A stretch of DNA of 64,000 nt from Lachnospiraceae bacterium (GCA_017558145.1 JAFYWF010000116.1:4415-68414), one strand, 5' to 3'; shown: positions 24,844 to 46,495, counted from the stretch's first letter. The notes: generated from the sequence alone by a model not told the origin. Program-made: numbers and translations.

Positions 24844-27183
24844 TTATCTTCTACTAATCTTCTCCTTAATCTTCGTAGAACTGGTACTCTGGGTATATGG
24901 GAAAAATACCAAATCTGCCCCCTGACTCTGTAAATATCTTTTCTTTGCTAACCAATCCGGATCATTCTCATAATCACTGCCGGAAAACTGTACATCAAAA
25001 TGATATTTGCTATATGCAGTCTCCGTATCTCCATAGTTTGGGCCTATTTTTACTGCTTCATCCACATAACGACAGGAACGCACAATCTCAATTCTTTCTT
25101 CAAAAGGTATATATGGATTTGTCTTCTTGTTTTTACGAACACTCTCATCAGATACCACACCCACAATTAGATAATCACACTGCTCTTTTGCCCGCTTGAA
25201 CATATTCAAATGACCTACATGAAACAGATCAAATACTCCTGCAATATATCCCACATGATACTTCTTCGGTGCAGCTACCTCTTCTCCTGAAACACTGACC
25301 AGTACTTTGGGTATCACTTTCTTCCTTGGATACTTTATACTCCAATCATATACTCCGTAATGCTTTACCCCTAATTCCCTCAGCTGTCTCATGACACCTA
25401 CATAATTCTTAATACAGATAATTACCTTATAACTATCCGCCTCCATATTTTTCAAAATATCCGGACTGAAAATAGGAATATCATACATCCGGGTTCCCCA
25501 CTTCTCCGAACTGTTATCCAGAATCCCCTCTACTTCCACTTCTCCTTCAAACTGTTCCAGGAAACGCATAGTAAATCTTCCGGAACCGAATAAATACAGC
25601 TTTTTATCTTCCAAGTTTTCTAAAATATCCTTAAAAATTGCTTGATATTCACTCTCTGAATAATTCATTCTCTGTCGGTTGGAATGAACAATACCGTCAT
25701 TACGTTTATAGGCTACATAAAAACTACCTAACTCTTTCTTGTTACGTAAGACATCTATAAATTTTGTAGAGTACCTTTTCCATAATTGTTCATATTCACC
25801 TAGACCATACCTATCCATCAAAGTCCTTCTCGACAATGCGGATTCCAGACCTGCATCTCCACCATAAATCATATTTATAGAACGATATAGAATCACATTA
25901 GCAGGAAGTTCTTCATAATAAAACTCCTGATCATAGAAAAGAAACCTATCCTCTGTTTTAAAACAGTTTAAGGAAACAAGATCTATGTATCCTCTCTTTA
26001 AAACAGGACCAAAATACTCTGCCTTTTCTGAAAAAGCAACTTTTTTCCATTGCTCCCTGTTTGGATCATCCGGTTTTCTTCTTTCCCAATCCGGATCCAT
26101 CTTGTCCCAATCTACTTCATCATAGGAAATAATATCTGAAGAATGAAAAATAATATCTCTGAAAGCATCTAACTCCTTCAAAAAAACTTCCGTATCTTCT
26201 TTTATTATCCGTCGGAAATAATTCGTTACAATTTCACCCTTTATATACGGCATTATAAACATATCTTGTTCTATATGACCTTCTACTACAGCCACACCAT
26301 GAGCTTTCAAATCCTCATTGTGTTCTACAAGTTTTTTCAGTCGCTCTTTTCCTTCTTCATATAACGCTTTCTTTATTACAGTATCTTTTCCTGTAATAAT
26401 AGTTGCCAAAGCAAACTCTTTTCCTCTATCTATAGAGAGAGTAACATGTTTTACATCCATAAACTCATTATTTAAGGAATATTCTATAAAATAAGAATTA
26501 GCCATAATATGAAACAAACCGTTTTGTACAAGAGTATTATACAATTTCTCTTCTTCCAGAAAAATAGTATCCGGTGTCCTATAGCCTGGAAAAAATCTAA
26601 CTTCTAACTCCTCTTCCGGTAAATAATCTTCCGCATAAATTAATTGCGGCATAGATAGGTTTGGTAATACAGAATAAAATTTTCTGCTGCTAAATCCGGC
26701 TTTGTCCAAAATATTCTCTATTTCTGCTTTGGAATACGCTCTCCCTTTTAACTGATCATAATCTGCTTTGTTAATTTTATAATAATTTTCTATACCATCA
26801 AAATTACGATTAGTAAAAGCATCCCTATCACCACAGAAATAACGGATTCCCAGACGATTATCCATTCCAAGAAGTAATTTCCCATCACTTGCCAAATGTC
26901 TTCTTAGAATAGCCAGCAACTTCTCCGGCTCCTTACAATATTCTAAACAACCTAACAAAATAATATATTCATATCTCTCTAACTTATTCTCTAAGTCAAA
27001 AACTCTTTCTATATCCATACAAGAAACAGCAAGACCTGTTTCCTGAAGCCCTTCTAGAAGAGCTTCATAATTCATTTCTTGCTGTAAACTGTGTGTAATA
27101 AGAAGTGCTGTGGCTCCTTTATTAAATTTGTACCATTTGATGATTCCCTTGGGAAGTTCGCGGATTAGTTGTTGTGTATGCAT
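24844..27183 (-). CDS. Four-domain fusion: class I SAM methyltransferase - kinase-like (APH/ChoK-like) - Rossmann-like FGxG...DN..WG module - HxGH cytidylyltransferase
   Basis: N-terminus LLLGMDNRLGIRYFCG (MTase family common in clostridial glycan loci). Middle YIDLVSLNCF...FYDQEF (HxDxxxxN / D-x-E-like kinase core). Then KKLYLFGSGRF...ILDNSSEKWGT...IPIFSP. C-terminus GYIAGVFDLFHVGHLNMFKRAKEQCDYLIVGVVSDE (TagD-type CTase). Confidence 0.65.
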   Translation of the reverse strand: MHTQQLIRELPKGIIKWYKFNKGATALLITHSLQQEMNYEALLEGLQETGLAVSCMDIERVFDLENKLERYEYIILLGCLEYCKEPEKLLAILRRHLASDGKLLLGMDNRLGIRYFCGDRDAFTNRNFDGIENYYKINKADYDQLKGRAYSKAEIENILDKAGFSSRKFYSVLPNLSMPQLIYAEDYLPEEELEVRFFPGYRTPDTIFLEEEKLYNTLVQNGLFHIMANSYFIEYSLNNEFMDVKHVTLSIDRGKEFALATIITGKDTVIKKALYEEGKERLKKLVEHNEDLKAHGVAVVEGHIEQDMFIMPYIKGEIVTNYFRRIIKEDTEVFLKELDAFRDIIFHSSDIISYDEVDWDKMDPDWERRKPDDPNREQWKKVAFSEKAEYFGPVLKRGYIDLVSLNCFKTEDRFLFYDQEFYYEELPANVILYRSINMIYGGDAGLESALSRRTLMDRYGLGEYEQLWKRYSTKFIDVLRNKKELGSFYVAYKRNDGIVHSNRQRMNYSESEYQAIFKDILENLEDKKLYLFGSGRFTMRFLEQFEGEVEVEGILDNSSEKWGTRMYDIPIFSPDILKNMEADSYKVIICIKNYVGVMRQLRELGVKHYGVYDWSIKYPRKKVIPKVLVSVSGEEVAAPKKYHVGYIAGVFDLFHVGHLNMFKRAKEQCDYLIVGVVSDESVRKNKKTNPYIPFEERIEIVRSCRYVDEAVKIGPNYGDTETAYSKYHFDVQFSGSDYENDPDWLAKKRYLQSQGADLVFFPYTQSTSSTKIKEKISRR

Positions 27184-27203
27184 ATTTATTACCTCTCAAA
27201 TTT

Positions 27204-28532
27204 TTACTTTTTATAAATAAATATATTCTCGTCGCTTACATTTACATTTATTAACTGTTCCTTTATGTCCTTTGCATGTTTTTGATTAGCTATAGCAAAG
27301 CATGCATTGGGATATTTTCTTATACAATTCATCGGCGACTCAATAACATGCTCCCCATACTTAATTCCCCATTTTTTATTATCATTATCACAAACAGCAA
27401 CAATTGAAAAGCATTTTTTCTCTAATAACAAATATAAATCTCGTCCATATTTTCCACATCCAAATATAATAATTTGCTTATTCTGTATTCCCCTTAAGAA
27501 CAAATCCTTATTAAGGCTTACCCTCTTATCTCTATTCTTTAAATATTCAATAAAATTATTGGAAGATTCCAACAAGCTACTTAACAAAAACCAGGTTTCT
27601 TCGCTGTAATCATCTTTTGATAATATCCCCTGATGTATAGCTTTATTCAATTTTTCTTTAAACCAATCATAATATTCATCCCATTCGTTCAACTTAGTAT
27701 AATTATTCATTTGAGATATTTTCACATATTGTCTCAAAAACGAATAACTCATTCGTCTATAAAAACCTTTAGCATATCTCTCTGTTAAATGATTGGATAA
27801 TACATTTTCTTCCAATAGCCAACGAAATTCTTGAAAAGAATATTTCAACACATTTTTAGTATTAGAAGATGCTCCATCTCGATCCATACAATAACAATAA
27901 CAACATTTTTGAAGGTATACTGCCCGTTTTGCATGATACATCACCTGCATAGAAAAACCTATATCTTGAAATGCAGCACCAGGAGTTTCATGAAATCTGA
28001 TACTATTACTAGTCAAAAAATCCTTATTATATATTCCTTTCCAAATACTGTGATCACGTTCAAGAACATCTATTATATTTTGTGGTTTCACAACAGTTTC
28101 ATAGTCATTTTTGCTCTGGAAAAGATGCTCTTCACTAAATAAACGTTCTCCACTTAGCAAAGTAAAAAAAGATTTATAATCCGCTTTCACATAATCGACA
28201 TTTTCTTTCTCTGCACAATTATAAAGAGTTTCATACATATCAGAAACAACAAAATCATCCGTTTCAACAATTCCAATATATTTACCTTTTGCAACATCCA
28301 ACCCCATATTTAGTTGATAACCATAACTCTTAATTTCACTATGTAATAACTTTACTCTACTATCTATATCAGCATATTTTTGAAGAATCTCCTTGGTTCC
28401 ATCTGTGGACCCCGCGTCAATACAGATTATCTCCAACTCCTTTAATGTCTGTTTGAGTACACTATTAATACATTCTCCAATATATGACTTTACATTTAAA
28501 GATGGTAAAATAACTGATACTGCTGGTTTCAT
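27204..28532 (-). CDS. GT2 glycosyltransferase with C-terminal Rossmann-like FGxG...DN..WG module
   Basis: VSVILPSLNVKSYIGECINSVLKQTLKELEIICIDAGSTDGT...ETDD. The C-terminus is KQIIIFGCGKYGRDL...VCDNDNKKWGIKYGEHVIESP. Confidence 0.8.
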   Translation of the reverse strand: MKPAVSVILPSLNVKSYIGECINSVLKQTLKELEIICIDAGSTDGTKEILQKYADIDSRVKLLHSEIKSYGYQLNMGLDVAKGKYIGIVETDDFVVSDMYETLYNCAEKENVDYVKADYKSFFTLLSGERLFSEEHLFQSKNDYETVVKPQNIIDVLERDHSIWKGIYNKDFLTSNSIRFHETPGAAFQDIGFSMQVMYHAKRAVYLQKCCYCYCMDRDGASSNTKNVLKYSFQEFRWLLEENVLSNHLTERYAKGFYRRMSYSFLRQYVKISQMNNYTKLNEWDEYYDWFKEKLNKAIHQGILSKDDYSEETWFLLSSLLESSNNFIEYLKNRDKRVSLNKDLFLRGIQNKQIIIFGCGKYGRDLYLLLEKKCFSIVAVCDNDNKKWGIKYGEHVIESPMNCIRKYPNACFAIANQKHAKDIKEQLINVNVSDENIFIYKK

Positions 28533-28651
28533 CTAATTTTCCTCGTTTACTCTCTATTTTTCTGTTTCTGACCATACATGCTCTAAATTATTAGCAAACA
28601 ATTCCCACGTGTAACATTTCTTATCTTTTCTCACTTATTCCTTGGTGTCTC

Positions 28652-30124
28652 CTATTCCCAAATACAATACCAACGCTCTGCTATCTTATCCCATGATGAA
28701 TGCTCCCATACTAATTCTCTATTTCCCATACATCTATACTTATATTCATCTACATGCTTTACAATATCTTCTATTACTTCTGTAAGCTCTTTTATCTCAT
28801 TCACACCAACAAAATAAATTCCTTTATCTTGTAAATTCTGATAGGGCAACCATTTTCCTGCAATAATAATACTTCCGGCATACATTTCTTCAAGCATCGT
28901 AGAGCTTAATTGATCCGTCGTCTGTACATGAATCATGATATCTGATATTAATGCATATTCAGCCATATCCTCAAAAGTCATATATTCCTTCAAAATAATA
29001 CCTTCAATACTACCATCACTCAATCTTTGTATAATTTCTTTTTCATATTCTTTATCTTTCACACCATAAGTCATTGGAAATACACATACTATTTGCTCTT
29101 TTATTTCATCGGATAGTTGAAGCAACGCATCTACCATTTTCAAATGTTGATGTTCTTTATTTGCATTATGACCACAAGTTACAATCAACTTGTCATTATC
29201 TATGTGAAATTTCTTTCGTATTTCCTCTTTTGAACATTTCCTTTTGCTTTTAATATAATCCAAAACCTCCACCCCATAAGGAAGAGCTCTTATTTTGTTT
29301 CTATCAATTTCTTGAAAATATGCAAGAAAATTATTAACTGTACATTCTGTATCAGCTGTAATTATATCTGCACATGAAATAAGCTTTTTCTTGTATTCTT
29401 TCTCAGCCACAATAGAGCGATAGAAATCACTACCACCCACTTTAATATTCAAACGTTTTGATTTCTTTCTGATTAATTTTGTAAAAAATACCCATTCTCG
29501 TTCTATCCACAATAATTGTATTACGTCATATACTGGTATTTTTTCCAATATAGACTTTATGTCCTCCATAGTATTATAACAATAAATATGTATCAGCTTA
29601 TCTGACTGTATCAAATTTTTACTTTCATATGCATTTGTTAATAATGACAGTTCAATATCTTCATACCTTTTTGACATATTTTCAATTAACTGTTTAACAT
29701 AAGGAGTAAAAAAAGAGCAGCAAAGCAAAATCTTTTTCTTGTCATTTTCCTGCACTTTTCTTTGCAATAAATCATACTGTTTTAATGGAATGTCCGTACT
29801 GTCTAATTTCTCCTCTATAACGGAATAAATTCCACAAACCATCCCTTCCTTTGTTCTATTTAGATAACACATATATATTCGTTCTTCTTTTACGCCCATA
29901 TTAAGTAATTGATTTACTATTTCCATAGCATACTTTGAAGATGTAATAACAATAGCGCATTCCGTATTTATAATTATAGATGGGGCTTCTATTACATAAG
30001 CCCCTATCCTTGTTCCCCATAACTTCTCATTATTATCTATTACAGCTTGAATTTGATACTGTTCTTCTAAAAAAGGCAAGCATTTTTTACCAACTGCACC
30101 TGTTCCAAACACAATTATATTCAT
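28652..30124 (-). CDS. N-terminal Rossmann-like FGxG...DN..WG module fused to a GT-B-like glycosyltransferase (WecF/GT56-like pattern, weak)
   Basis: MNIIVFGTGAVGKKCL...VIDNNEKLWGTRIGAYVIEAPS. Later CGHNANKEHQHLKMVDAL, FPMTYGV..KEYEKEI and VQTTDQLSSTMLEEMYAGSIII. Confidence 0.45.
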   Translation of the reverse strand: MNIIVFGTGAVGKKCLPFLEEQYQIQAVIDNNEKLWGTRIGAYVIEAPSIIINTECAIVITSSKYAMEIVNQLLNMGVKEERIYMCYLNRTKEGMVCGIYSVIEEKLDSTDIPLKQYDLLQRKVQENDKKKILLCCSFFTPYVKQLIENMSKRYEDIELSLLTNAYESKNLIQSDKLIHIYCYNTMEDIKSILEKIPVYDVIQLLWIEREWVFFTKLIRKKSKRLNIKVGGSDFYRSIVAEKEYKKKLISCADIITADTECTVNNFLAYFQEIDRNKIRALPYGVEVLDYIKSKRKCSKEEIRKKFHIDNDKLIVTCGHNANKEHQHLKMVDALLQLSDEIKEQIVCVFPMTYGVKDKEYEKEIIQRLSDGSIEGIILKEYMTFEDMAEYALISDIMIHVQTTDQLSSTMLEEMYAGSIIIAGKWLPYQNLQDKGIYFVGVNEIKELTEVIEDIVKHVDEYKYRCMGNRELVWEHSSWDKIAERWYCIWE

Positions 30125-30141
30125 TTTTATCCAAATCTCCT

Positions 30142-30708
30142 TTACCCTTTCTCACATAACTCCTTATCTTTTTCAAAATACTCTCTGCCACAAGACGAAC
30201 ATATCTTTTTTTTATTCAAGCGTTCTCCACACTTACATACCCATCCTATCTGTTTTGCCGGAACTCCTGCCATCAAGGCATAATCTGGTACATTCATTGT
30301 AACAACAGCTCCCGCCGCAATGAACGCCCACTTACCAATTATATGACCACATACTATTGTTGCATTTGCTCCTATGCTTGCTCCTTGCTTAACCAGCGTC
30401 TTTTTATATCCAACTGTACCTTTCGGAAATGGTGCTCGCGGTGTTAAATCATTTGTAAATACACATGAAGGACCACAGAACACCTCATCTTCTATCTCTA
30501 CACCTTCATAAATAGAAACATTATTCTGTATCTTTACACCATTTCCAATTTTTACATGATTTGAAACATTGACATTCTGCCCTAAAGAACAATTCTTCCC
30601 AATATGAGCACCTTTCTGAATATGGCAAAAATACCATATTTTTGTATTCTCCCCTATTTCTACCCCCTCATCAATGTAACTACTCTCATGCACAAAATAA
30701 TTCTTCAT
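30142..30708 (-). CDS. Hexapeptide-repeat (left-handed beta-helix) amino-sugar N-acetyltransferase, WbpD/WlbB-like, with a C-terminal Cys4 ribbon
   Basis: VHESSYIDEGVEIGENTKIWYFCHIQKGAHIGKNCSLGQNVNVSNHVKIGNGVKIQNNVSIYEGVEIEDEVFCGPS, with the tail CKCG...CSSCG. Confidence 0.75.
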   Translation of the reverse strand: MKNYFVHESSYIDEGVEIGENTKIWYFCHIQKGAHIGKNCSLGQNVNVSNHVKIGNGVKIQNNVSIYEGVEIEDEVFCGPSCVFTNDLTPRAPFPKGTVGYKKTLVKQGASIGANATIVCGHIIGKWAFIAAGAVVTMNVPDYALMAGVPAKQIGWVCKCGERLNKKKICSSCGREYFEKDKELCEKG

Positions 30709-30710
30709 TC

Positions 30711-31841: not shown

Positions 31842-31852
31842 GTATTTTACCT

Positions 31853-32929
31853 CTACTTATTAAATCTACCTACAAAATCCATTGTCGAACAATCTGTTAA
31901 TGGAAGTTTAATACTTTTACCTTCCGCTGCTGACTTATAAATTGCTAATACCAATTCCATTGCTTTCTTACCATCCATCGCAGTAATATATGGCTGTCTA
32001 TCATTTTCTATGGCATTTATCATATCTGCATATAGCGGTGTATGACCATAGCCATATACATTCGGTGGATTCTCGTGGAATCTCTCCTTCACTACCTCCG
32101 GATCATCTAGTAAATCTGAAAATCTCCATTCTTCAATTATATTTACCGATTGTCCTCCTGCCTTCACGGTACCTTTCTCCCCAAATATATATAATGTCTC
32201 TTCTAAGTTTTTAGGATAAACATTTGTGGTCCCATCAATCATCCCATAACTTCCATTTTTAAACTTTACTAAAGCAATTCCTAAATCTTCCGCTTCTATG
32301 TAGTCATGATTTAATTTGTCTGTCATACCCACTACTTCTACAATTTCACTTCCCATCATCCAACGAAGCAAGTCAATATTATGAATACATTGATTCATTA
32401 ATGCACCACCATCCTGTGCCCACGTACCACGCCAATCTGCTCTATCATAGTACTCATGGTCTCTGCACCATCTGATATGTGCTGTTCCATAAAAAAGTCT
32501 ACCAAAACGATTCATATCTATCGCTTCTCTGATAATCTGTACTGACTTATTAAATCGATTCTGATGACATGCACTAACCTTCACATGATACTTTATAGCA
32601 GCTGCAATAATTGCATCCGCATCCTTTATAGATAAAGCAATCGGTTTCTCTATAATGCAATGACAACCATGTTCAATACAATATAGTGCAATTTCTGCAT
32701 GCTTACCACTTTCCGTGCATATTGCAACTAACTCCGGTTTTTCTTTATCCAACATTTCCTTATAATCAGTATGGCTTTTTACTTCCTCCCCAAGTTTAAA
32801 TTTCAATCTTTTGTCTTCCATACATGCTTCTACCACATCACAAATCGCTACTATTTCTAACTTATTATTCTGTGCTGCCACTATATGATTTGGTGAGATT
32901 CTGCCACATCCAATTAATGCATATCTCAT
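31853..32929 (-). CDS. Gfo/Idh/MocA-family NAD sugar oxidoreductase (WbpB-like)
   Basis: MRYALIGCGRISPNH..., EKPIALS, and a C-terminal alpha/beta dimerisation domain. It sits next to the aminotransferase and acetyltransferase. Confidence 0.75.
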   Translation of the reverse strand: MRYALIGCGRISPNHIVAAQNNKLEIVAICDVVEACMEDKRLKFKLGEEVKSHTDYKEMLDKEKPELVAICTESGKHAEIALYCIEHGCHCIIEKPIALSIKDADAIIAAAIKYHVKVSACHQNRFNKSVQIIREAIDMNRFGRLFYGTAHIRWCRDHEYYDRADWRGTWAQDGGALMNQCIHNIDLLRWMMGSEIVEVVGMTDKLNHDYIEAEDLGIALVKFKNGSYGMIDGTTNVYPKNLEETLYIFGEKGTVKAGGQSVNIIEEWRFSDLLDDPEVVKERFHENPPNVYGYGHTPLYADMINAIENDRQPYITAMDGKKAMELVLAIYKSAAEGKSIKLPLTDCSTMDFVGRFNK

Positions 32930-32951
32930 ATTATTCCCTCCTATTCGTAAA

Positions 32952-33893
32952 TTACTTAAAATAATAATTTTGATTCTTAGTTGCTCTTACCCATAAAACT
33001 CCCCGTCTATCCTCTTCAATCTTTTCTATTAGTCTATTGTTCTTTACATTCAAATAAGCATCTTTTTCATCTGCATATGCTAAACGATATGTACTAATAT
33101 TAAAATATTTTAATAGCATATCTTCTAATAACGATACTGTTAAAGTATATGGCACCGTTTCCGTTTTAGGCTCATTTATATTAAAACTAGCTAATAATGT
33201 TCCATTGTGTTTTAATATTCTTATTAATTCCTTACACATACTTTCCAAATCCCTTACATGATCTAAAGCATTAGTTGTCACCAAAACATCTACACTTTCA
33301 TCAGGTAAAGGTATGTATTGCTCACTTGATGTTACATATACCATTTCATGTGTTATCATATTATCACCAAACTTCTTTAAGTATTCCGGAACTAATACAT
33401 CTATCCCTATTTTCATCGTTGGAGTGTTCGTCCATTTCAAACTACCTCTTGGTCCACATCCAAAGTCTGCTACAATTTTATTCTTCCAAAATTCATCACT
33501 CGATTCTTCTGCTATTGAAAGCATGAAATCTTTGTAAAAATCATTCTTAAACTCCAATTTTTCTTCCTGATATCTTACTTTCCAAAAATCCAATTCAGCT
33601 TCATATTTATTTTCCGGAATTGCAATTGTAATAATTTTATCAATAGGAATCGCATATAACTTCACTAATTGTTCTTTAATTTCCAAATTATATTTTTTCG
33701 TACATAATAAAATTTCATCAAACTGATAATCCATCAAATTCTGGGGAGCGATAATTTCTACACCATTATAAGTGCTTCCCCATTTATTTTTGTCATTATC
33801 ACAGAATGCAATTATATCATATTCTGCAAGCATATCTCTCATAATTACTCTTTTTAAATATTGCCCTACCCCGAATACAACAACTTTCTTCAC
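32952..33893 (-). CDS. N-terminal Rossmann-like FGxG...DN..WG module fused to a class I SAM methyltransferase; GTG start
   Basis: KKVVVFGVGQYLKR...FCDNDKNKWGSTYNGVEIIAPQ, then IVADFGCGPRG and LVTTNALDHVRDLESMCKELIRILKHNGTLL. Confidence 0.75.
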   Translation of the reverse strand: MKKVVVFGVGQYLKRVIMRDMLAEYDIIAFCDNDKNKWGSTYNGVEIIAPQNLMDYQFDEILLCTKKYNLEIKEQLVKLYAIPIDKIITIAIPENKYEAELDFWKVRYQEEKLEFKNDFYKDFMLSIAEESSDEFWKNKIVADFGCGPRGSLKWTNTPTMKIGIDVLVPEYLKKFGDNMITHEMVYVTSSEQYIPLPDESVDVLVTTNALDHVRDLESMCKELIRILKHNGTLLASFNINEPKTETVPYTLTVSLLEDMLLKYFNISTYRLAYADEKDAYLNVKNNRLIEKIEEDRRGVLWVRATKNQNYYFK

Positions 33894-33925
33894 CTTAACA
33901 TATCCTCCTTCTAAATCATATTACC

Positions 33926-35296: not shown

Positions 35297-35402
35297 TTTC
35301 GCTCCTCGTTCTATTCATTTGATTCTAACATCGCTGCATCTAAATAAGTTATTTTCTCATCTTCAATTTCTTTATTTTCGAATTTTGTCAAATAATTTCT
35401 TT

Positions 35403-36674: not shown

Positions 36675-36704
36675 CCCTCTATCAATATTCACAAAACCAA
36701 CAAT

Positions 36705-36726
36705 AAGGTGCCTTTTTTGGCACCTT
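36705..36726 (-). terminator. Rho-independent terminator after the TagF-like gene
   Basis: aaggtgcc (36705-36712), loop tttttt, ggcacctt (36719-36726). The minus-strand downstream sequence is auuguugguuuug. Confidence 0.6.
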
Positions 36727-36740
36727 ACTCGTTCTTCTAC

Positions 36741-38003
36741 TTAATTGTTCATATATATACTTTTTATCACTTCTGCAAGATCCTCTGATGCATGTCCCGT
36801 AAAAACTATTCCAAGTTCATCAAATATATCATCAATAGCTATTTCATACTCTTTTTCATTGAATTTAGAAATGATTTGCTCAAGCTCATCATTATTTGTT
36901 GCTATTGCGAATGGAAATTTTGCATCAAATGTAGGAGTAATATCCTTATTGTTTCTAACATTATCCAACGGATCTGTTGCTATATTCCACATAAGCTCTC
37001 CTCTGTCATTTGCATATTTTTGTATGTCATCTGCATAAATAAACACGGGAATCTTTGCATACCCTGCTTCAAAACAGGCACTTGAATAATCTGTTATATA
37101 TCCATCCATTGCCGCCAGTATTTCATACATATCATCAGCCTTACTCTCATTTATGATTCTGTCGTTAACTTCCTCATCCTTATAGTCTTCAAAAGTAGGT
37201 GCAAGCTGTGGATGTACTCTTACGCATATATACCATGTTCCTGTGAATTTCTTTTCCAGGACATTGATAAGTCGTTTAAAATCCAAACTCCAAATTTCCG
37301 AAAACACAAACCTCTTCCCGTCTTTTGCTCCTTCTCTAAAAGTAGGTGCATACATAAGTATCTTTGCATCCAATGGAAGATTATGTTTTTTTCTAAAATT
37401 CTCTTTTTGTACTGTTCTGTCCCCGTACATCACATCCACTCTTGGAGCTCCTGTCATCTGATAGGTTCCACCGTACACAAGACCTTTTGGGGACACTTCT
37501 TCACACCATCTTGAATCTATTACCAAATCATCTATCATATCCGAGTCATTTTTGCTTACCAGATATGCCATTTTAGAAAATCCTTTTCCGCGCCAAAGTC
37601 CGGTACATTTGATTGCTATTGTATAATGATTCACATTTAAATAGTACTGGGCTTTTCTTTTAACAGTGCCATATGGTTTTCTGTAGTTATCTATCCATAC
37701 TTTGGATCTCGTAAGATAATATGCACGATTTAAAAGCGTATTGGGAACTTTTTTTATATAGTTTGGAAATTCTTTATTCATATCATTTACAAACCACACA
37801 AATTCATAATCCGGCTTTTGCTTGTGAAGTGCCTGTACAAGATATTTGGGATTGCACCCAAATCCACCTTTTCCTTCAAAGGTACATACACTGATTAGAT
37901 TTTTCTTTATAGGAAATATTCTGCATGCATAAAAGCATAAGCTATCTCCAAAAGCTTTTATTCTTCTTTTCAATATATACAATTCTGTTTTTATTCTTCC
38001 CAT
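36741..38003 (-). CDS. CDP-glycerol/polyol-phosphate transferase, TagB/TagF family
   Basis: ILMYAPTFREG, ICVRVHPQL and DGYITDYSSACFEAGYAKIPVFIYADD are classic Glyphos_transf blocks. Confidence 0.85.
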   Translation of the reverse strand: MGRIKTELYILKRRIKAFGDSLCFYACRIFPIKKNLISVCTFEGKGGFGCNPKYLVQALHKQKPDYEFVWFVNDMNKEFPNYIKKVPNTLLNRAYYLTRSKVWIDNYRKPYGTVKRKAQYYLNVNHYTIAIKCTGLWRGKGFSKMAYLVSKNDSDMIDDLVIDSRWCEEVSPKGLVYGGTYQMTGAPRVDVMYGDRTVQKENFRKKHNLPLDAKILMYAPTFREGAKDGKRFVFSEIWSLDFKRLINVLEKKFTGTWYICVRVHPQLAPTFEDYKDEEVNDRIINESKADDMYEILAAMDGYITDYSSACFEAGYAKIPVFIYADDIQKYANDRGELMWNIATDPLDNVRNNKDITPTFDAKFPFAIATNNDELEQIISKFNEKEYEIAIDDIFDELGIVFTGHASEDLAEVIKSIYMNN

Positions 38004-38027
38004 TTTTACCTCTTAAGTAAATGCATA

Positions 38028-38762: not shown

Positions 38763-38764
38763 AT

Positions 38765-39913: not shown

Positions 39914-39921
39914 ACATTTAT

Positions 39922-41454
39922 TTACAGATTTTCTATCCGTACCTCTCTATCATTTCTTATTTTGTCCAAAATCTCTATTCTTCTGACATATAAGTCTTTT
40001 AATGAATTATAAGTTTCTTTATACAATTCATACATATATATGTATTTACGGTGATTTTCCAAGTTTGGCTTTATAATCATTCTAATTAATGCAAATTTAT
40101 TAGCTGCTTCTTTCATATTCTGATAAACACCCTGACCTGCCAATACCATCATTGCTGCACCTGATGCTGTAGTTTCGAATTCTGCCAATACCATAACATC
40201 TCTTCCCAAAACATCGGCTTTAATTTGAGATATCAGGTTTATTCTCGCCAATCCCCCTGATAAACGTACAGATTCTATGTCCACTCCTGTTTCCTTTATT
40301 GCATCAATAATATCCAAGTCAATAAAGCCTGTACTTTCAAAAACGGCTCTTGTCATATCTTTACGTGTATGCATTCTTTCCAAGCCAAAGAAAACACCTC
40401 TGGCATTATTATCCCATACCGGTGTTCTCTCTCCCAATAAATATGGTAAGAAAATTAGACCTTTGGCTCCTATTTCAGATTCATTTGCATCTTTTTCCAT
40501 GATTTCATATGGATATTGTTCTCCCTGATAATAACATTGCTTTACCCATTCTATCAATCCTCCCCCTAAATTATTGGATCCTCCAACTATATTGGCATCT
40601 TCCTGATAGAATGGAACATTATATATCTTATTACTATTAACTAAACCTTTTTTCTTGCTTAAAGCTCTAAAAACAGTTACTGTGCCGGATACATCACTAG
40701 CTTCTCCTTCTTCTGATACACCACTGCCTATAAATGAACATATTGCATCATACGAAGTTACAACGACTTTAATATCTTGATTTGAATTTATTTTCTCCGC
40801 TGTATTCCGATTAATCTTCCCAATACAAACTCCTGTATCAGTTACTTCCGGTAACTTATTTACAGATATTCCTAATTTTTTTAGAAAAACTTCAGGATAC
40901 ATCTTTTTAGCCAAATCATAATGATACTTTGTTGCATTTAAATAATCTGTAACACATTCTCCGCAAAGTTTATAGATCAAATAATCATTAGGTGTCATAA
41001 AATAACGTGTTTTTTCAAACATTTCCGGTAAATTTCTTTTAACCCATAATATTTTAGGTAACATAAGACTTACAGACATATCTAATCCGGTATTCTTTTT
41101 AACTTCTTCAAATTCTTTCATTTCTGAAATCATTTGAACTTCTTTTTCTGCACGCTTATCTGAAACCATAAACGCTTTTCCTAACGGATTTCCATTAGAA
41201 TCAACACATACCAAACAAGATGCAGATGTTGTAACTGTTATATATTCTATCTTGACATTTCCGGCATCTTTTAATGCTTTTCTCATTACGATTTCAGCCT
41301 TTTCCCACCATTCCGCAGGATCCTGCTCAACCCTTTTATCATTTATTGCTGTATTTATTGCTATAGCTGCACTTCCGAGTTTTAAACCATTCTGATTAAA
41401 AATAATACATCGTATACTTTTTAATCCCATATTAATAACCATGACATTATTCAT
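39922..41454 (-). CDS. FGGY-family carbohydrate/polyol kinase
   Basis: ORF 39922..41472, whose track start is TTG. ATG at 41454 follows AAAAGGA. VMVINMGLKSIRCIIFNQNG...QDPAEWW, and a C-terminal GGLARINLISQIKADVLG. Confidence 0.8.
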   Translation of the reverse strand: MNNVMVINMGLKSIRCIIFNQNGLKLGSAAIAINTAINDKRVEQDPAEWWEKAEIVMRKALKDAGNVKIEYITVTTSASCLVCVDSNGNPLGKAFMVSDKRAEKEVQMISEMKEFEEVKKNTGLDMSVSLMLPKILWVKRNLPEMFEKTRYFMTPNDYLIYKLCGECVTDYLNATKYHYDLAKKMYPEVFLKKLGISVNKLPEVTDTGVCIGKINRNTAEKINSNQDIKVVVTSYDAICSFIGSGVSEEGEASDVSGTVTVFRALSKKKGLVNSNKIYNVPFYQEDANIVGGSNNLGGGLIEWVKQCYYQGEQYPYEIMEKDANESEIGAKGLIFLPYLLGERTPVWDNNARGVFFGLERMHTRKDMTRAVFESTGFIDLDIIDAIKETGVDIESVRLSGGLARINLISQIKADVLGRDVMVLAEFETTASGAAMMVLAGQGVYQNMKEAANKFALIRMIIKPNLENHRKYIYMYELYKETYNSLKDLYVRRIEILDKIRNDREVRIENL

Positions 41455-41618
41455 TGTTAATTTCCTTTTCAATTATAATCAGTCTCTTTTCAAAATTCTA
41501 CTTTTGTAAAAGTAAAAAGACATCGAAAATCGATGCCTTATAAATCATACTAATATTATATCACTTCCTGTGATACTCTTATACGAGTTTTGCTTCCCTG
41601 CATCTTATTCTGATAATA
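41455..41618 (-). ncRNA. Conserved 5' leader, copy L2 (twin GGA-loop hairpins plus an intrinsic-terminator-like hairpin)
   Basis: In RNA sense: UGC-AGGGAA-GCA (rc 41591-41602), AUCAC-AGGAA-GUGAU (rc 41560-41574), and GGCAUCGA-UUU-UCGAUGUC (rc 41519-41537) followed by UUUUUACUUUU (rc 41507-41518). The SD AAAAGGA and the ATG at 41454 follow. Confidence 0.5.
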
Positions 41619-41645
41619 ATATCGGAAATTTTGCGAATTAGCTTA
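41619..41645 (-). promoter_or_regulatory. Sigma-D/sigma-28-type promoter (TAAG-N16-CCGATAT), copy L2
   Basis: Minus strand: TAAG (rc 41642-41645), 16-nt spacer, CCGATAT (rc 41619-41625). Confidence 0.6.
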
Positions 41646-41665
41646 ACCTTTTTGGTAATATTCCT

Positions 41666-43462
41666 TTACTTGCTCTTGGGTAAATACAGCTCTGGTACAT
41701 TAGTAATTATATCTGTCACACCAAACATAGCATATTTTTCAAGATGCTTTTCCTTTAGCTGTCTTGTCTGCCCAAAGAAAGGCTCTTCTCCATTCCATGC
41801 TCTTACAGGAATACCTTCTGTCTGTTTGATTTCTTCTTCATCTACAGACAATCCTCCAATCCATGGATGAATTGCATCTGCTTCGTATTTTAGATAATCC
41901 AATCGACACTGTTCCATATCCACTCCCAAGATTCCGGTTTGAGCATATGGTGCTAACTTCTTAATTAGTCCCATGGATTCTGGTAGGAAGGAAGAATATA
42001 CAATATTCTCTTCCAAACCATAATCAGCTACCAATTGAAGAACTTTTTCTTCCATACCTTCATAGCGGATAATACTGTTCTTCAGCTCAATGTTAATCAG
42101 AAATTTTCCCTCCGGTCTTTCTTCTTCACACACAGAATATAATAAACGGAATACTTCTTCTAAGGTAGGAATTGTTGTATATGTTCCATTTACACTTGCA
42201 ATTTTCAAGTTCTTCAGTTCTTGCAAAGTATAATCACAAACCCTTCCTTTTCCATTGGTGGATCGATCTACAGTTTCATCATGTATTACTACCAATTCTC
42301 CATCTTTGGTCAGCTGAACATCCAATTCGATTCCAGTAATACCTTTGATTTCAGAAGCTGCTTTGAATGCTTCCAATGTATTCTCAGGATAAGCCATACT
42401 GCAACCTCTATGAGCCCAGAATCGAATATTCTTTTTATCTATACTATTGTTTGTATCTTCTTTATCATCTTGAGAATTACTGTTCAATTTCTTAGTCTCT
42501 TGTTTTCGATTTCGATATTTCAGATACTGTTCCATTTTATCTGCCAACCAAATACTCTCTTCCGGTGTTACAATAGGGACCATTCCATCTAATATCTGTT
42601 CCACAAAAGCCTTAACTTCATATCGAAGCCCTTGCCCTTCATACGGGAATTCGTAAATGTCTTTTTTGTTAGGGTTTTCATATCTTACTTCAAATCGTCT
42701 TGTTAACCACCAAGGAGCCTGCACCACAATATAACCTACACTTCCTGCAATTACTAATTGGCCCTCCGACTTTACTTCCAATCCCGTTTTCGCTAACCCT
42801 GTCGCACTACCATATTCAAAACTTGCTTTAGTATAGATATCCGTTCCGTTTATAGCCAAAGCGGAATGAAACTGAAGATCTGTTTCTTCCGTTCCCAATA
42901 GTTTCAAGGAAGGAAGCATGGAATAAGTACCTAATTCTAAGAAACTTCCTCCATGATTAGAATCTAAAATTTCTCTCATATTGGTTGAACCTAATTTAGA
43001 AAAACATGCTTCCACATCATATATTTTTCCTATTTTTCCGCTTTTAATTACCTGTTGCAATGCCTGGAATCCAGGACAATACGCTGTCTTGATACCTTCC
43101 ATTAGTACAAGATTATTTTCTTCTGCTATAGCAAATAACTCTTCCGCTTGTGCTTTAGAAAATACCATAGGCTTTTCACACAATACATGTTTTCCTGCCA
43201 ACAACATCTTTTTGGCATATTCATAATGTGTTTCATGCGGTGTTGCAATATATATAGCATCTACAGCCTCTATAAATTCATCTTTTTTATCGGTATAATT
43301 TGAAATAAACAATTCCGTTGCAAATAATTTTGCACTATTAAGATTAGGATTATAAACTGCACTTACTTCTATTCTTTCCACATATCTTGCTTCAGGTACA
43401 AAACGCTTTGCAATTCGTCCAGTTCCAATGATACCTAATCTTATTTTATAATTATTTTCCAT
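41666..43462 (-). CDS. Fusion: Gfo/Idh/MocA oxidoreductase (N) + glycerophosphodiester phosphodiesterase GDPD (C)
   Basis: N-terminus IRLGIIGTGRIAKRF...EKPMVFS. C-terminus FWAHRGCSMAYPENTLEAFKAA...GIELDVQLTKDGELVVIHDETVDRSTNG (GDPD HR..E..D..H pattern). The N-domain is a paralog of the C-domain of 48834..50177. Confidence 0.75.
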   Translation of the reverse strand: MENNYKIRLGIIGTGRIAKRFVPEARYVERIEVSAVYNPNLNSAKLFATELFISNYTDKKDEFIEAVDAIYIATPHETHYEYAKKMLLAGKHVLCEKPMVFSKAQAEELFAIAEENNLVLMEGIKTAYCPGFQALQQVIKSGKIGKIYDVEACFSKLGSTNMREILDSNHGGSFLELGTYSMLPSLKLLGTEETDLQFHSALAINGTDIYTKASFEYGSATGLAKTGLEVKSEGQLVIAGSVGYIVVQAPWWLTRRFEVRYENPNKKDIYEFPYEGQGLRYEVKAFVEQILDGMVPIVTPEESIWLADKMEQYLKYRNRKQETKKLNSNSQDDKEDTNNSIDKKNIRFWAHRGCSMAYPENTLEAFKAASEIKGITGIELDVQLTKDGELVVIHDETVDRSTNGKGRVCDYTLQELKNLKIASVNGTYTTIPTLEEVFRLLYSVCEEERPEGKFLINIELKNSIIRYEGMEEKVLQLVADYGLEENIVYSSFLPESMGLIKKLAPYAQTGILGVDMEQCRLDYLKYEADAIHPWIGGLSVDEEEIKQTEGIPVRAWNGEEPFFGQTRQLKEKHLEKYAMFGVTDIITNVPELYLPKSK

Positions 43463-43516
43463 ATCTTTTATAAGAATTATTTCTTCCTTTTCTCCTTTTG
43501 TATGAACGGCTTCTGT

Positions 43517-44449
43517 TCATATGTTATCTATTTGTTTGGCCATGGATACTCCGGTATCATAAATTACCTTTAGTACTGCTTCTGATAGTTTATGAGGAAA
43601 ACTATTCATGGCAGGAAATGTTTCAAAACTTAAGGTACCTTTATATCCTATTTCTTTTAATGCCTTTAAAATTCCTTCCCAATCAGCACCTCTATCTTCT
43701 CCCTTACCGAATGTGTATGGTAGCTGATGAGTATCGTCTGTTCCATTATTTTCATGAAGATGTAATACCTTAATTCTTGAACCCATTTTCTTAATAAAAT
43801 CATATGGATCTTTCTTTGCCAATTGAAGATGTCCGGTATCAAGGCAGAAACCAAATAATTCTTCCCCTGCATACTCATTAAGAGTGTCTATATACCAAAT
43901 AGCATCTTCTACATCAGAACATACACCTTCTACAATTCTTCCTCCAACACTTTCGTAAAGATTTTCTAAACAAACTCTAACACCACACTGTTTTAACAAT
44001 GGCACCAACATCTTAAAATATTCCAGATTCGTTTGCTTTTCTGCTTCTTTTCCTTTGCTATATTGTAATTTAAAAGGATGGATTACTACCCACGGTACTC
44101 CCATGGCTTCCGCAATAATAATACTTTTAGGAATTACATTTCCTTGCATATACGCCGTTGCTTTTCCATTTCCCGGTACATACACAGGATATGGTGCATG
44201 CATCTGCGAAGGTAATAAACCATACATATCCATTGCATGTTTATATTTTCCAAAAATAGTTACCAACTCCGGTATCTCTTTGTCAAAAAACTTATTTAAT
44301 TTTCCTGCATATACATTGCTATTGATTAAAAATGCATCTAGATTAAAATCCACCTTGGTAAATCCAGCATTTGCAATTTTTTGAAATCCCTTCGTTATAT
44401 CGCCTTGTTCTGTAACAATTCCTTTTGTTTGTACTCCTATTGTCAACAT
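43517..44449 (-). CDS. Xylose-isomerase-like TIM-barrel sugar(-phosphate) isomerase/epimerase
   Basis: VCLENL...FCLDTGHLQLA...VLHLHENNGTDDTHQLPYTFG...GTLSFETF. Confidence 0.7.
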   Translation of the reverse strand: MLTIGVQTKGIVTEQGDITKGFQKIANAGFTKVDFNLDAFLINSNVYAGKLNKFFDKEIPELVTIFGKYKHAMDMYGLLPSQMHAPYPVYVPGNGKATAYMQGNVIPKSIIIAEAMGVPWVVIHPFKLQYSKGKEAEKQTNLEYFKMLVPLLKQCGVRVCLENLYESVGGRIVEGVCSDVEDAIWYIDTLNEYAGEELFGFCLDTGHLQLAKKDPYDFIKKMGSRIKVLHLHENNGTDDTHQLPYTFGKGEDRGADWEGILKALKEIGYKGTLSFETFPAMNSFPHKLSEAVLKVIYDTGVSMAKQIDNI

Positions 44450-44458
44450 ATTTTTCTC

Positions 44459-46495
44459 CTATACATCATACAAATCATGATAGCATCTATATTTAATTCC
44501 CATACTATCTAATTGTGCTCCAATTGGTCCATAATATTGGTTTGCAATAAACACCAATCTTTCTTTCTCAGGAACTTCTAAAATTGCTTTCGGTGATTTA
44601 ATAATTAATCCAAATCTTGTCGTGTTCCATATGGAAGAATCGTTATCCACTAAAAATTCTGGTCTATATTTAGTACCCCAAATTTCTGTAAAATTATACG
44701 CCATAACTCCAGCCCCAAACAAAATAATCTTTTTATTTGGCTGATTCAAATACTCTTCCAATCGAATAACCTCTTCCCATTCATTTGCTATACTTCCTAA
44801 CAAAGAAATATAGGGCATGTGTAAATCATTTGGTGCTTTATTAAAGATTCCTTCTGTGTTAAATATCAAACGTCCTGCATAATGCTGTCTTCTGAGTTCG
44901 CCGATGATTCTATGCCAATCTGTGGTTTTATTTCCTCGTCCCATAGTATAGGTATATGGTATCTGCCTATCATTATGAATTCCATCATTATCATTTATAT
45001 GTACTAATTTAAGTAAATTGCCTGCCTCCTCTATCATAGTACGAAGGTTCTTGGATAATACATTCCCATTACCAACATCAATACTAATTCCAATACATTC
45101 CTTATCACAGATGCGATTAATCTGCCTTGCTATTCTTTTTAAATTAGTTATCTCTGATGCTTCACTGCAAATATATTCTTGTTGCTTAGAGATCACATAC
45201 CCATTTTCAAGATAGATTTCTATTTCCTTATCTATCAAGAGATCAACAAAACTTTCCAAGATATATGAAATAATACGTGTAGAGGCTACTCCTTCTGTAT
45301 TGATTACAATATAGCTTACACCCATGTCCTCCGCTATCATTACTGCATGAAAAAACTGTTCTTCATCTAAATCAATTCCCTTTAAGATTATCCCTGTTGG
45401 AACCGGCGTGCTATTCTGAGAGATTACTCCATCCTGCCATTGTTTATATTCATCCAAATCTTCATAGTTTATTTCCGTTTCTGTAAATCCCTGTTCACAT
45501 AAGAATGCCGGAACATCTTCCCTCCACACATGTTTCATATAAGGGATTCCTGTTTTAAATTTTCTATCCTTCATTACTCCAATACTTTCTCCTGTCATTA
45601 GTTGTAAATTCTTATCTGCTTTTTCTATGGATTCTGAACCTAAGATAAATTCTCTTCTGAAATCATAATAGAAAGGCGACTCTTTTGCATAATCCCACCA
45701 CAATTGCTCCATTTCAAAATGTCCAATTTTAGGATTCCAAGGTTTTCCCGCCAAAAAATGTACCAGCGTTACTTTTTCTTTCGCTTCTTTGTAACCAACA
45801 CCAAAATTGTGTGCAAATCTGGCATATAAATTATATTTAACAGTTTCTACGAATTTTACATCTTTCCAATGAACATAATTCAACAAATCCTGATCCGGTG
45901 TTTCCAACCGATAATCATACTTTTGGGCTACTTCCATGTATGCCTTTAATCCATATTTTTCTCGAAGTAGCTTTAAGTTCATTAATAATACACCAGAATT
46001 AAAATAGGTGAATCCTTCCCTTACATGTTCTTTGAACATTTCATCACGATATTGAAACACACCAATACCGGAAAATGGTTCCGGACAAGCACACAAAGCA
46101 TTTCCATTAAATTCTGTATGATATAGTTCTTTTAAGGAATGATTTACAACAATATCTACATCCAGATACAAAATTCTCTCTATTTCCTCCGGTAATATTT
46201 CCGGAAGCACCAATCGATAAAAAGACTCCACCGGCCAATTTGCATATTCTGTACATTCTTTTGGAAAATAAGATGGTTCAATCTGCAACCAATGCACATA
46301 TCCCCCATAGGATTGTATCAAGTTTTCTAAACAATGTTTTTCTTTTTCAATCAGTTCGCTTTGCAATAGATAAATATGCATCTGAACATCTTTACCTTGG
46401 TTTTCAAATAAAGACATCAACATTACATAAGTATATCTGACATAATTTCTATCCAATGCAACTGCAATATTCATTCTGCTATCATCCATGTGCAT
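44459..46495 (-). CDS. Triple fusion: GT8 glycosyltransferase - xylose-isomerase-like TIM barrel - Rossmann-like FGxG...DN..W module
   Basis: N-terminus MNIAVALDRNYVRYTYVMLMSL...LYLDVDIVV...FNSGVLLMNL (GT8). Middle LVHINDNDGIHNDRQIPYTYTMGRG...RLIFNTEG, parallel to the 43517 protein. C-terminus KKIILFGAGVMAY...LVDNDSSIWNTTRFGLIIKSP. Confidence 0.7.
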   Translation of the reverse strand: MHMDDSRMNIAVALDRNYVRYTYVMLMSLFENQGKDVQMHIYLLQSELIEKEKHCLENLIQSYGGYVHWLQIEPSYFPKECTEYANWPVESFYRLVLPEILPEEIERILYLDVDIVVNHSLKELYHTEFNGNALCACPEPFSGIGVFQYRDEMFKEHVREGFTYFNSGVLLMNLKLLREKYGLKAYMEVAQKYDYRLETPDQDLLNYVHWKDVKFVETVKYNLYARFAHNFGVGYKEAKEKVTLVHFLAGKPWNPKIGHFEMEQLWWDYAKESPFYYDFRREFILGSESIEKADKNLQLMTGESIGVMKDRKFKTGIPYMKHVWREDVPAFLCEQGFTETEINYEDLDEYKQWQDGVISQNSTPVPTGIILKGIDLDEEQFFHAVMIAEDMGVSYIVINTEGVASTRIISYILESFVDLLIDKEIEIYLENGYVISKQQEYICSEASEITNLKRIARQINRICDKECIGISIDVGNGNVLSKNLRTMIEEAGNLLKLVHINDNDGIHNDRQIPYTYTMGRGNKTTDWHRIIGELRRQHYAGRLIFNTEGIFNKAPNDLHMPYISLLGSIANEWEEVIRLEEYLNQPNKKIILFGAGVMAYNFTEIWGTKYRPEFLVDNDSSIWNTTRFGLIIKSPKAILEVPEKERLVFIANQYYGPIGAQLDSMGIKYRCYHDLYDV

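Follow-up and report, generated by a model that had tools for sequence, protein, structure and literature searches.

In a gut Lachnospiraceae bacterium, five enzymes encoded in a single gene cluster for glycan synthesis have a small Rossmann-like module in common, with one copy on each enzyme. The module may well be an accessory domain that takes no part in catalysis and serves to bind a nucleotide, a reading drawn from sequence, a structural model and analogy to which we give about as much credence as doubt. The homologous segments of about 90 amino acids lie in minus-strand ORFs of the window, i.e. the whole stretch of 64,000 nucleotides that was analyzed. Their envelopes, as set by an HMM built from 100 family members, are:

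25327..25617, minus strand: module copy A, amino acids 523-619 of a 779-amino-acid protein (ORF 24844-27183)
27207..27491, minus strand: module copy B, amino acids 348-442, the C-terminus of a 442-amino-acid GT2 glycosyltransferase (ORF 27204-28532)
29852..30124, minus strand: module copy C, amino acids 1-91, the N-terminus of a 490-amino-acid GT4/GT-B glycosyltransferase (ORF 28652-30124)
33609..33893, minus strand: module copy D, amino acids 1-95, the N-terminus of a 313-amino-acid class I SAM methyltransferase (ORF 32952-33893)
44465..44746, minus strand: module copy E, amino acids 584-677, the C-terminus of a 678-amino-acid GT8 plus TIM-barrel protein (ORF 44459-46495)

A preliminary description of this DNA had already placed one Rossmann-like module of this size at essentially these coordinates, and the motif noted there agrees with the residues invariant in all five copies, namely F-G-x-G, D-N, W, I..P and Q-L. 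The HMM of 100 family members recognizes copy A with 88.9 bits (E 5.9e-29), B with 83.9 bits (E 2.1e-27), C with 94.5 bits (E 1e-30), D with 86.6 bits (E 2.9e-28) and E with 80.7 bits (E 2e-26). Furthermore, a leave-one-out test, in which an HMM from four copies was searched for the fifth, retrieved A with an E-value of 5.8e-13, B with 3.5e-16, C with 3.6e-21, D with 2.3e-14 and E with 1.3e-11; the top unrelated ORF of the window in this test, a Gfo/Idh/MocA ORF (31853-32929), reached 0.006-0.9. When single modules served as phmmer queries against the six-frame translation of the window, the other four copies outranked almost everything else, with the exception of query B, for which the Gfo/Idh/MocA Rossmann ORF ranked among them. 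A sixth copy was not found in the six-frame scan of the window, and the module is absent from the hexapeptide acetyltransferase (30142-30708) in the same scan. The nearest relatives of copy E are the modules of TIM-barrel plus module proteins in other loci (44-48% identity).

The segments might instead be integral to the neighbouring catalytic domains and resemble one another by chance or composition, a reading in whose favour the low pairwise identity among the five copies (20-38%) is the sole point. It is refuted by the leave-one-out E-values (1e-11 to 4e-21, as compared to at least 0.006 for unrelated ORFs) and is almost certainly wrong. Pfam assigns different families to the different hosts: Methyltransf_23 and CTP_transf_like to that of copy A, in which the module is internal, preceded by a conserved region of unknown function and followed by the cytidylyltransferase domain at the C-terminus; Glycos_transf_2 (GT2, amino acids 6-124) to that of B; Glycos_transf_1 (299-457) to that of C; Methyltransf_11 (143-234) to that of D; and Glyco_transf_8 (9-254) together with AP_endonuc_2 (381-548) to that of E, whose TIM barrel is xylose-isomerase-like. 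None of these catalytic-domain matches overlaps the module. The earlier claim of an attachment to five unrelated catalytic domains thus holds, and the objection raised along with it, that the segments could simply be parts of those domains, does not. The copy C module is also predicted by AF2 to fold confidently in isolation as a compact Rossmann-like domain (pLDDT 92.6, pTM 0.82). As judged from this model, the module is an independently folding Rossmann-like domain, separate from the attached catalytic domains, and the order of its secondary structure elements is b1-aA-b2-loop-b3-a-b4-a-b5.

Across 391 modules from 80 loci, the most conserved positions are two glycines (0.94 each) and an aspartate (0.91), which in the alignment correspond to the GxGxxG motif of Rex and to its b2-end Asp. 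Of the five window copies, only two (B and C) have the third glycine of GxGxxG. Within one partner class, the module is conserved over its whole length.

In the window itself, a TagF-like gene (36741-38003) is without a module that 18 of 24 close homologues have, and the same is true of a GT2 gene (46629-47660), for which 14 of 16 close homologues have one. As these genes lack what most of their homologues carry, the catalytic fold can do without the module, arguing for an accessory domain. No TM-like window was detected in any of the five hosts by a hydropathy scan, and their Pfam and NCBIfam matches include neither an HTH nor the DNA-binding domain of Rex.

The module is not special to this locus and is instead a general accessory domain. 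The family is widespread, with 12,521 clusters at 50% identity, and occurs N-terminal, C-terminal, internal, in tandem or alone, with more than 15 unrelated catalytic partner families. Among these, CTP-transferases, LicD, TagF-like, GT2, GT4, GT8, GT-D, GT111 and GT32-like proteins, SAM methyltransferases, FkbM and radical SAM proteins handle nucleotide-activated substrates or cofactors, and for the TIM-barrel, GDSL and NKWYS partners an action on nucleotide-linked sugars would be plausible. In related loci of Lachnospiraceae, there are 1-10 module copies per about 22 kb (commonest count 6). Flagellin, which the preliminary description had suggested as a binding partner besides a shared nucleotide-sugar, is encoded no further than 10 kb away in just 4 of 80 such loci. 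Across genomes, nearest-neighbour modules share their partner class in 85/86, 87/100 and 60/61 cases, and module identity is 22% within one locus as compared to 40% between loci for modules that share a partner class. By this comparison the module-enzyme fusions are old, since the modules group by partner enzyme and not by locus. Thus, the description of the module as "shuffled" stands insofar as one module is found on different enzymes, but the shuffling was neither local nor recent.

In the reading that we prefer, each segment would be a small (about 90 amino acids) Rossmann-like domain of the PF22674 (C2185-like_N) type that is added on to its enzyme without a part in catalysis. It would bind a nucleotide at the canonical Rossmann site, which is made up of the glycine-rich b1-aA turn (GxG) and the b2-end Asp. 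We base this on the characterized relatives (the WbaP DUF, Rex and VioB), which all bind a nucleotide, on the conserved G, G and D of the canonical site, on the fact that most identified partner families handle nucleotide-activated substrates or cofactors, and on the AF2 fold together with the solved relatives (3nkl, Rex, 2g6t, VioB and WbaP). Every partner class could produce, alter or use up activated building blocks such as NDP-sugars and CDP-alcohols, and the module might grip the nucleotide "handle" of these. Alternatively, it might sense a by-product that is a nucleotide and adjust the activity of its enzyme accordingly; possibly it also acts as a dimerizing unit. On the other hand, three of the five window copies are without the third glycine of GxGxxG, glycosyltransferases, LicD, TagF and cytidylyltransferases have nucleotide sites of their own and therefore do not obviously need a second one, and the needs of folding could in principle suffice to explain why the glycines and the Asp are conserved. 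A wider proposal, which we regard as unlikely, is that the module is a handle for the control or assembly of the whole pathway, by which the binding of a common nucleotide (e.g. an NMP or NDP by-product, or the nucleotide part of intermediates), the pairing of copies, or both would coordinate 5-10 otherwise unrelated enzymes. If so, these enzymes would form an island for flagellin or glycan glycosylation in the cytoplasm.

Nucleotide binding has to be weighed against a role as a protein-protein adaptor, in which the module mainly homo- or hetero-oligomerizes and gathers the 5-10 module-bearing enzymes of a cluster into a complex, as the preliminary description had suggested, with the GxG and Asp kept for fold or interface. 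Many copies per cluster and the gain or loss of an accessory module among close homologues would suit an adaptor, and tandem arrays of 2-4 modules, present in 49 of 159 proteins examined, are as expected of self-pairing domains and are explained by protein interaction no less well than by nucleotide binding; for one natural tandem protein, the AF2 model computed from its single sequence (pLDDT 62, pTM 0.45) was too poor for any packing to be read. Related domains do dimerize: Rex is a dimer. In WbaP the DUF makes up most of the dimer interface (PMC10942596). However, modules of the same locus share only 22% identity and track their partner class, and thus do not look as if they co-evolved around a shared interface, and the sole near-universal residues are those of a classical nucleotide site. 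We therefore consider a pure adaptor unlikely.

The frequent loss of the module among close homologues could also mean that it is a degenerate or structural appendage, a stable fold that helps solubility or spacing and has no specific ligand or partner. Literature searches on PF22674 found no reported function, and the likely prototype of the family, 2g6t, has lost the GxG/Asp signature. Such an appendage would hardly be expected to keep G, G and D at 91-94% conservation while partner classes share only about 22% module identity, nor to be conserved over its whole length inside a partner class or retained repeatedly in so large a family, and we hold this reading to be improbable. Very improbable, in our view, is a redox or metabolite sensor of the Rex kind, in which NAD(H) or a general metabolite would be bound and glycan synthesis tied to the metabolic state, independent of the nucleotides of the pathway. 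It draws on the Rex NAD(H) domains being the top matches in structure and second in sequence, and on the GxG and b2-end Asp being kept as in NAD-binding Rossmann folds. Against it stand the frequent absence of the third glycine, the shorter module, which ends after b5 and is without the C-terminal helix of Rex, and the closest sequence relative, which is of the uridine-nucleotide-binding CapD/WbaP type.

The domain family is already catalogued as Pfam PF22674. In the precomputed annotation of the source contig, PF22674 is assigned to copies B, C and D (E <= 1e-5) and as "weak" to A; this assignment covers A-D, the exact sequence of E being absent from the collection. PF22674 is also found on seven of nine close homologues. 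The homologue table uses model version PF22674.3 and our local library PF22674.2, with a cutoff of 27 bits, under which all five copies remain (D 24.9, B 15.1, no match for A, C and E). The close homologues P0001-P0009 fail PF22674.2 as well, and just 15 of 100 family members are recognized by it at E <= 1e-3. The Pfam check called for in the preliminary description thus gave one family for four segments in the precomputed annotation and no copy above cutoff locally. The PF22674 prototype is likely the N-domain of PDB 2g6t, a structural-genomics entry for an uncharacterized Clostridium acetobutylicum protein; the name C2185 presumably derives from the locus tag CAC2185. The module profile matches 2g6t over the whole domain (module positions 6-89), and Foldseek superposes the two with an rmsd of 2.9 A over 89 columns. 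As in copies C and D, the domain of 2g6t is N-terminal to a second domain. Unlike the modules studied here, it is without the GxG and b2-Asp signature; therefore, some family members probably do not bind nucleotides.

Relatives were ranked by the module profile against PDB sequences and by Foldseek against the PDB. The best solved match in sequence is 3nkl (E 5.2e-12), followed by Rex (1e-8), 2g6t (8.5e-7) and VioB (5.7e-4); the TM scores are 0.71 for 2g6t, 0.70 for 3nkl, 0.65-0.70 for Rex, 0.67 for VioB and 0.66 for WbaP (PDB 8t53, Foldseek E 1.4e-2). CoA_binding (PF02629) scores copy C with 21.3 bits, against a cutoff of 22.3. The module thus shares a lineage with the nucleotide-sensing DUF of WbaP and of PglF/WbpM-type proteins, with the domain by which Rex senses NAD(H), with the N-domain by which PglD/VioB grip an NDP-sugar, and with the C-domain found in sugar C-methyltransferases.

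The resemblance to PglD/NeuD noted in the preliminary description is real, although this is not the closest family, PF22674, 3nkl, Rex and 2g6t being nearer. PglD_N (PF17836), which in NeuD/PglD/VioB enzymes holds the nucleotide of the NDP-sugar substrate, has the same small three-layer Rossmann-like fold, and according to the PDB entry titles VioB was solved with a TDP-sugar and Rex with NAD+/NADH. Its cutoff of 23.4 bits is reached by no copy (B 21.7, C 15.3, others no match), it matches 9 of 100 family members at E <= 1e-3, and the NCBIfam NeuD_NnaD model gives E-values of only 0.004-0.035 on the modules. In NeuD/PglD/VioB the domain is followed by a left-handed beta-helix acetyltransferase, which is absent after all five copies. 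The NCBIfam Rex models match the module region only (E 8e-4 to 0.07), and the winged-helix DNA-binding domain of Rex is absent from the module hosts. The alignments span about 105-110 columns of the 200-residue Rex chains, and the C-terminal helix of Rex that the module lacks is domain-swapped. Methyltransf_14 (PF08484), the C-terminal domain of NDP-sugar C-methyltransferases such as TcaB9, binds a dTDP-sugar. It gives no Pfam match in the five window copies and matches 14 of 100 family members at E <= 1e-3; in P0012 the match overlaps the module at amino acids 99-145, and the 160-position profile is only partly covered (positions 67-113).

A further relative is the CoA_binding_3-type DUF of WbaP and PglF/WbpM/CapD, likewise a non-catalytic domain on glycan-pathway enzymes. 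From its name and sequence we take 3nkl to be a fragment of a CapD/WbpM-type protein, and its aligned motifs are iYGAGsaG and fIDDDrkK..G..iyrP. The isolated WbaP DUF is stabilized by UMP, UDP and UTP in thermal-shift experiments and was proposed by the authors to be a regulatory nucleotide sensor and dimerization element (PMC10942596). The WbaP/PglF domain comes after a four-helix membrane bundle and has a domain-swapped beta-hairpin, whereas the module is shorter, sits on soluble hosts without TM segments and carries the signature DN..KWG in place of DDD. If the wider proposal of a pathway-wide handle is correct, the module would be the soluble-enzyme counterpart of the nucleotide-sensing DUF of WbaP/PglF, reused in more than 15 catalytic families.

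Between 24.8 and 46.5 kb of the window, the minus strand encodes a series of soluble enzymes of carbohydrate pathways, and five of these proteins share a segment of about 90 amino acids, referred to here as the module. Its boundaries were taken from the envelopes of an HMM that comprises 100 non-redundant members of the family, and the host domains were assigned with Pfam:

25327-25617, minus strand: copy A, aa 523-619 of a 779-aa protein (Methyltransf_23 and CTP_transf_like)
27207-27491, minus strand: copy B, aa 348-442 of a 442-aa protein (Glycos_transf_2)
29852-30124, minus strand: copy C, aa 1-91 of a 490-aa protein (Glycos_transf_1)
33609-33893, minus strand: copy D, aa 1-95 of a 313-aa protein (Methyltransf_11)
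44465-44746, minus strand: copy E, aa 584-677 of a 678-aa protein (Glyco_transf_8 and AP_endonuc_2)

The copies are 20-38% identical to each other, with F-G-x-G, D-N, W, I..P and Q-L invariant in the five-copy alignment. When HMMs built from four copies were used to detect the fifth, E-values of 1.3e-11 to 3.6e-21 were obtained. In the whole window, translated in six frames, the unrelated ORF that came closest was a Gfo/Idh/MocA Rossmann protein with E-values of 0.006-0.9. Thus, the similarity is well beyond chance, and five homologous segments lie where the preliminary description had put them, on catalytic domains that are unrelated to each other, as it had also claimed. A sixth copy was not found in the six-frame scan of the window.

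The structure of module C was modelled by AlphaFold2 with a 100-sequence alignment. The model is confident and compact on its own (pLDDT 92.6, pTM 0.82), and the predicted order of elements, b1-aA-b2-loop-b3-a-b4-a-b5, is that of a small Rossmann-like domain. Its Foldseek matches in the PDB include the N-domain of 2g6t (TM 0.71), 3nkl (0.70), Rex NAD(H)-binding domains (0.65-0.70), the N-domain of the acetyltransferase VioB (0.67) and WbaP (0.66). Searching PDB sequences with the module profile yielded 3nkl (E = 5.2e-12), Rex (1e-8), 2g6t (8.5e-7), VioB (5.7e-4) and FkbM 2py6 (0.2).

In the local Pfam library, the window copies fall slightly under the cutoffs of several related models, namely PF22674 (C2185-like_N; D with 24.9 bits, cutoff 27), PglD_N (B with 21.7 bits, cutoff 23.4) and CoA_binding (C with 21.3 bits, cutoff 22.3). 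Together with the VioB matches, the PglD_N score upholds the kinship to PglD_N that had been proposed from the sequence pattern. The precomputed annotation of the source contig places PF22674 on three copies, B, C and D, with E <= 1e-5, and on A as a weak match. PF22674.3 is furthermore recorded for seven of nine close homologues, which the local PF22674.2 fails to reach. The module family is therefore already catalogued, apparently through the newer version of the PF22674 model. With the older library, the matches among 100 family members at E <= 1e-3 were PF22674 (15), Methyltransf_14 (14), PglD_N (9) and CoA_binding (6), and about 60% of the instances matched no model at all. The module is thus a real, mobile Rossmann-like domain and a member of the known family PF22674. 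This entry carries no functional annotation, and literature searches yielded nothing on the domain itself, only a study of the related WbaP (via PF13727).

A search with the five-copy profile against 1.84 billion representatives retrieved 12,521 clusters (50% identity) at E <= 1e-3, 1,976 of them at E <= 1e-10. The best 150 of the 12,521 clusters and the nine close homologues were examined, in total 159 proteins, which carry one (110), two (44), three (3) or four (2) copies in N-terminal (37), C-terminal (83) or internal (88) position or alone (7). The partner families of the module include the following:

CTP_transf_like, LicD, TagF-like Glyphos_transf
GT1/GT4, GT2, GT8, GT-D, DUF4422 (related to WbbM), Gly_transf_sug
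AP_endonuc_2 TIM barrels, several SAM-MTase families, FkbM, WbsX, radical SAM, GDSL, NKWYS

Tandem arrangements were also observed. P0010 (GFI17278.1, Lachnospiraceae) consists of four modules with a period of about 111 aa followed by a cytidylyltransferase, P0059 likewise has four copies, and in P0012 three copies precede GT4 and GT2 domains. A single-sequence structure model of the natural two-module protein P0023 was too poor to show tandem packing (pLDDT 62, pTM 0.45).

The window derives from a Lachnospiraceae MAG, and for comparison 80 species-level loci, nearly all from Lachnospiraceae or other Clostridia, were collected by seeding on full-length orthologues of protein A (A-type), which biases the set towards Lachnospiraceae clusters with an A-type gene. 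All 80 loci contain the module, with 1-10 copies per ~22 kb (mode 6) and 404 module-bearing ORFs in total. GT2-module, A-type, TIM-module, module-TagF, module-GT4 and GT8-module proteins are the recurrent architectures. Ten short ORFs consist of the module only, several of them at locus ends or resembling split genes; the best candidate for a genuine stand-alone module is P0004 (86 aa, on a 166-kb contig). In related loci, the A-type gene is usually followed directly by two distinct TIM genes, one with the module and one without. In the window, a module-less TIM-barrel gene (43517-44449, minus strand) lies directly downstream of the gene for protein E (44459-46495; TIM barrel and module).

The nearest neighbour of a module from another locus nearly always belongs to the same partner class (A-type 85 of 86, GT2 87 of 100, TIM 60 of 61, TagF 12 of 14), and the mean module identity is 22% between different proteins of one locus as compared to 40% within one class across loci. 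This argues that the fusions are ancient and were not shuffled in place. Hence, of the "shuffled" module in the preliminary description, the mobility and the attachment to unrelated enzymes stand, but not a local shuffling, as the modules track their partner class. Copy E clusters with modules from TIM-module proteins, and protein E therefore looks like a TIM-module unit to which a GT8 was fused. The module is accessory, since the TagF-like gene (36741-38003) and a GT2 gene (46629-47660) of the window lack it, whereas most of the close homologues that each has in related loci possess it (18 of 24 for the TagF-like gene, 14 of 16 for the GT2 gene). Consensus patterns derived for each partner class showed conservation over the whole domain within a class and gave no pointer to ligand specificity.

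With respect to function, the only near-universal residues in 391 modules are two glycines in the b1-aA turn (0.94 each) and an Asp that closes b2 (0.91). In HMM alignments the glycines coincide with the GxGxxG motif of Rex and the Asp with its acidic residue at the same point of b2, also an Asp, and we take them to be the phosphate- and ribose-binding positions of Rossmann folds. Rex is an NAD(H) sensor, and VioB and PglD grip the nucleotide of an NDP-sugar (as is in part apparent from PDB entry titles). The isolated DUF of WbaP is stabilised by UMP, UDP and UTP, makes up most of the dimer interface and was proposed to be a nucleotide-sensing regulator that also occurs in PglF-like dehydratases (PMC10942596). 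All characterised relatives thus bind a nucleotide, either non-catalytically or as a substrate grip, and the majority of the partner classes work with SAM or with nucleotide-activated compounds. Because of these relatives and partners and the conserved Gly/Gly/Asp, we give roughly even chances to the module being a non-catalytic nucleotide-binding accessory domain, which would either grip the nucleotide handle of activated precursors or sense a nucleotide effector.

Several points caution against this assignment. 2g6t is devoid of the GxG/Asp signature, the third glycine of GxGxxG is present in only two of the window copies, and glycosyltransferases and cytidylyltransferases have nucleotide sites of their own. 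As the main alternative, the module might serve protein-protein docking or oligomerisation; the tandem arrays and the multi-copy clusters speak in its favour, and we consider it rather improbable.

Protein A (24844-27183, minus strand) has 351 relatives across species-level genomes. Its C-terminal domain is similar to the cytidylyltransferases for ethanolamine-P, glycerol-3-P and choline-P. The region of aa ~240-520 is strongly conserved in the alignment of A-type proteins and gave no Pfam or PDB sequence match, so that the kinase assigned to it in the preliminary description was not confirmed. Further genes in and around the cluster were:

20637-23210, minus strand: 857-aa ORF in the glycan cluster, no Pfam match at E <= 1e-3 and none in the precomputed annotation; homologues in about 8-10 of the 80 loci
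23260-24703, minus strand: cassette of a 359-aa HTH_3 and Peptidase_M78 (ImmA/IrrE-like) protein and an upstream 107-123-aa ORF without family match
41666-43462, minus strand: Gfo/Idh/MocA oxidoreductase fused to a glycerophosphodiester phosphodiesterase (GDPD)
48828-50177, plus strand: cytidylyltransferase fused to Gfo/Idh/MocA oxidoreductase
52635-53495: flagellin

The two-gene cassette separates the gene of protein A from the 857-aa ORF and so interrupts the cluster; it resembles a toxin-antitoxin or regulatory pair that has been inserted. Both oxidoreductase fusions are unusual. Genes of mobile elements (Mob_Pre relaxase, PemK/MazF-like toxin, phage-type integrase) are located at the left edge (660-5111, minus strand), and transposase-like genes inside the island (PD-(D/E)XK, 18514-19521; Transposase_31, 53797-54717). 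A PilZ-domain protein of the c-di-GMP receptor type (10712-11335, plus strand) is encoded upstream of the island and adjoins Fur, rubrerythrin and glyoxalase genes.

The flanks of the cluster (14842-18357, 50226-51302, 52635-53495, 61319-62497) contain flagellin, two GT2-TPR and three DUF3880 plus Glyco_trans_1_2 (CgeB-like) genes; the window besides encodes two LicD proteins, one TagF-like protein, the GDPD fusion and several nucleotidyltransferases. Genes for multi-TM proteins, flippases, polymerases or initiating transferases are absent from 14.8 to 62.5 kb. The flagellin, GT2-TPR and CgeB-like genes and the lack of a multi-TM protein in this region suggest a cytoplasmic flagellin-glycosylation island. 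A specific tie of the module to flagellin glycosylation is not claimed here, because flagellin was found within 10 kb in 4 of the 80 loci only, and flagellin or a DUF3880-type gene in 11. This distance is too short to judge an enrichment beside flagellin genes as against CPS/teichoic-acid loci.

In gut Clostridia, the clusters for glycans and flagellin glycosylation are large and diverse and have hardly been characterised. One small domain on 5-10 enzymes per cluster, and in thousands of protein clusters, offers a cheap experimental entry point, as binding to 90 residues could reveal whether the pathways have in common a nucleotide-sensing or docking principle like that recently proposed for WbaP/PglF. 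Since the older Pfam version mostly misses the module, an explanation is now at hand for long stretches that carry no annotation in multidomain proteins labelled "glycosyltransferase" or "methyltransferase". When compared to known systems, the module is new neither in its fold nor in the kind of system it represents. It has well-known relatives, the closest characterised ones being the DUF of WbaP/PglF and Rex, and what stands out is its breadth and repetition rather than its kind.
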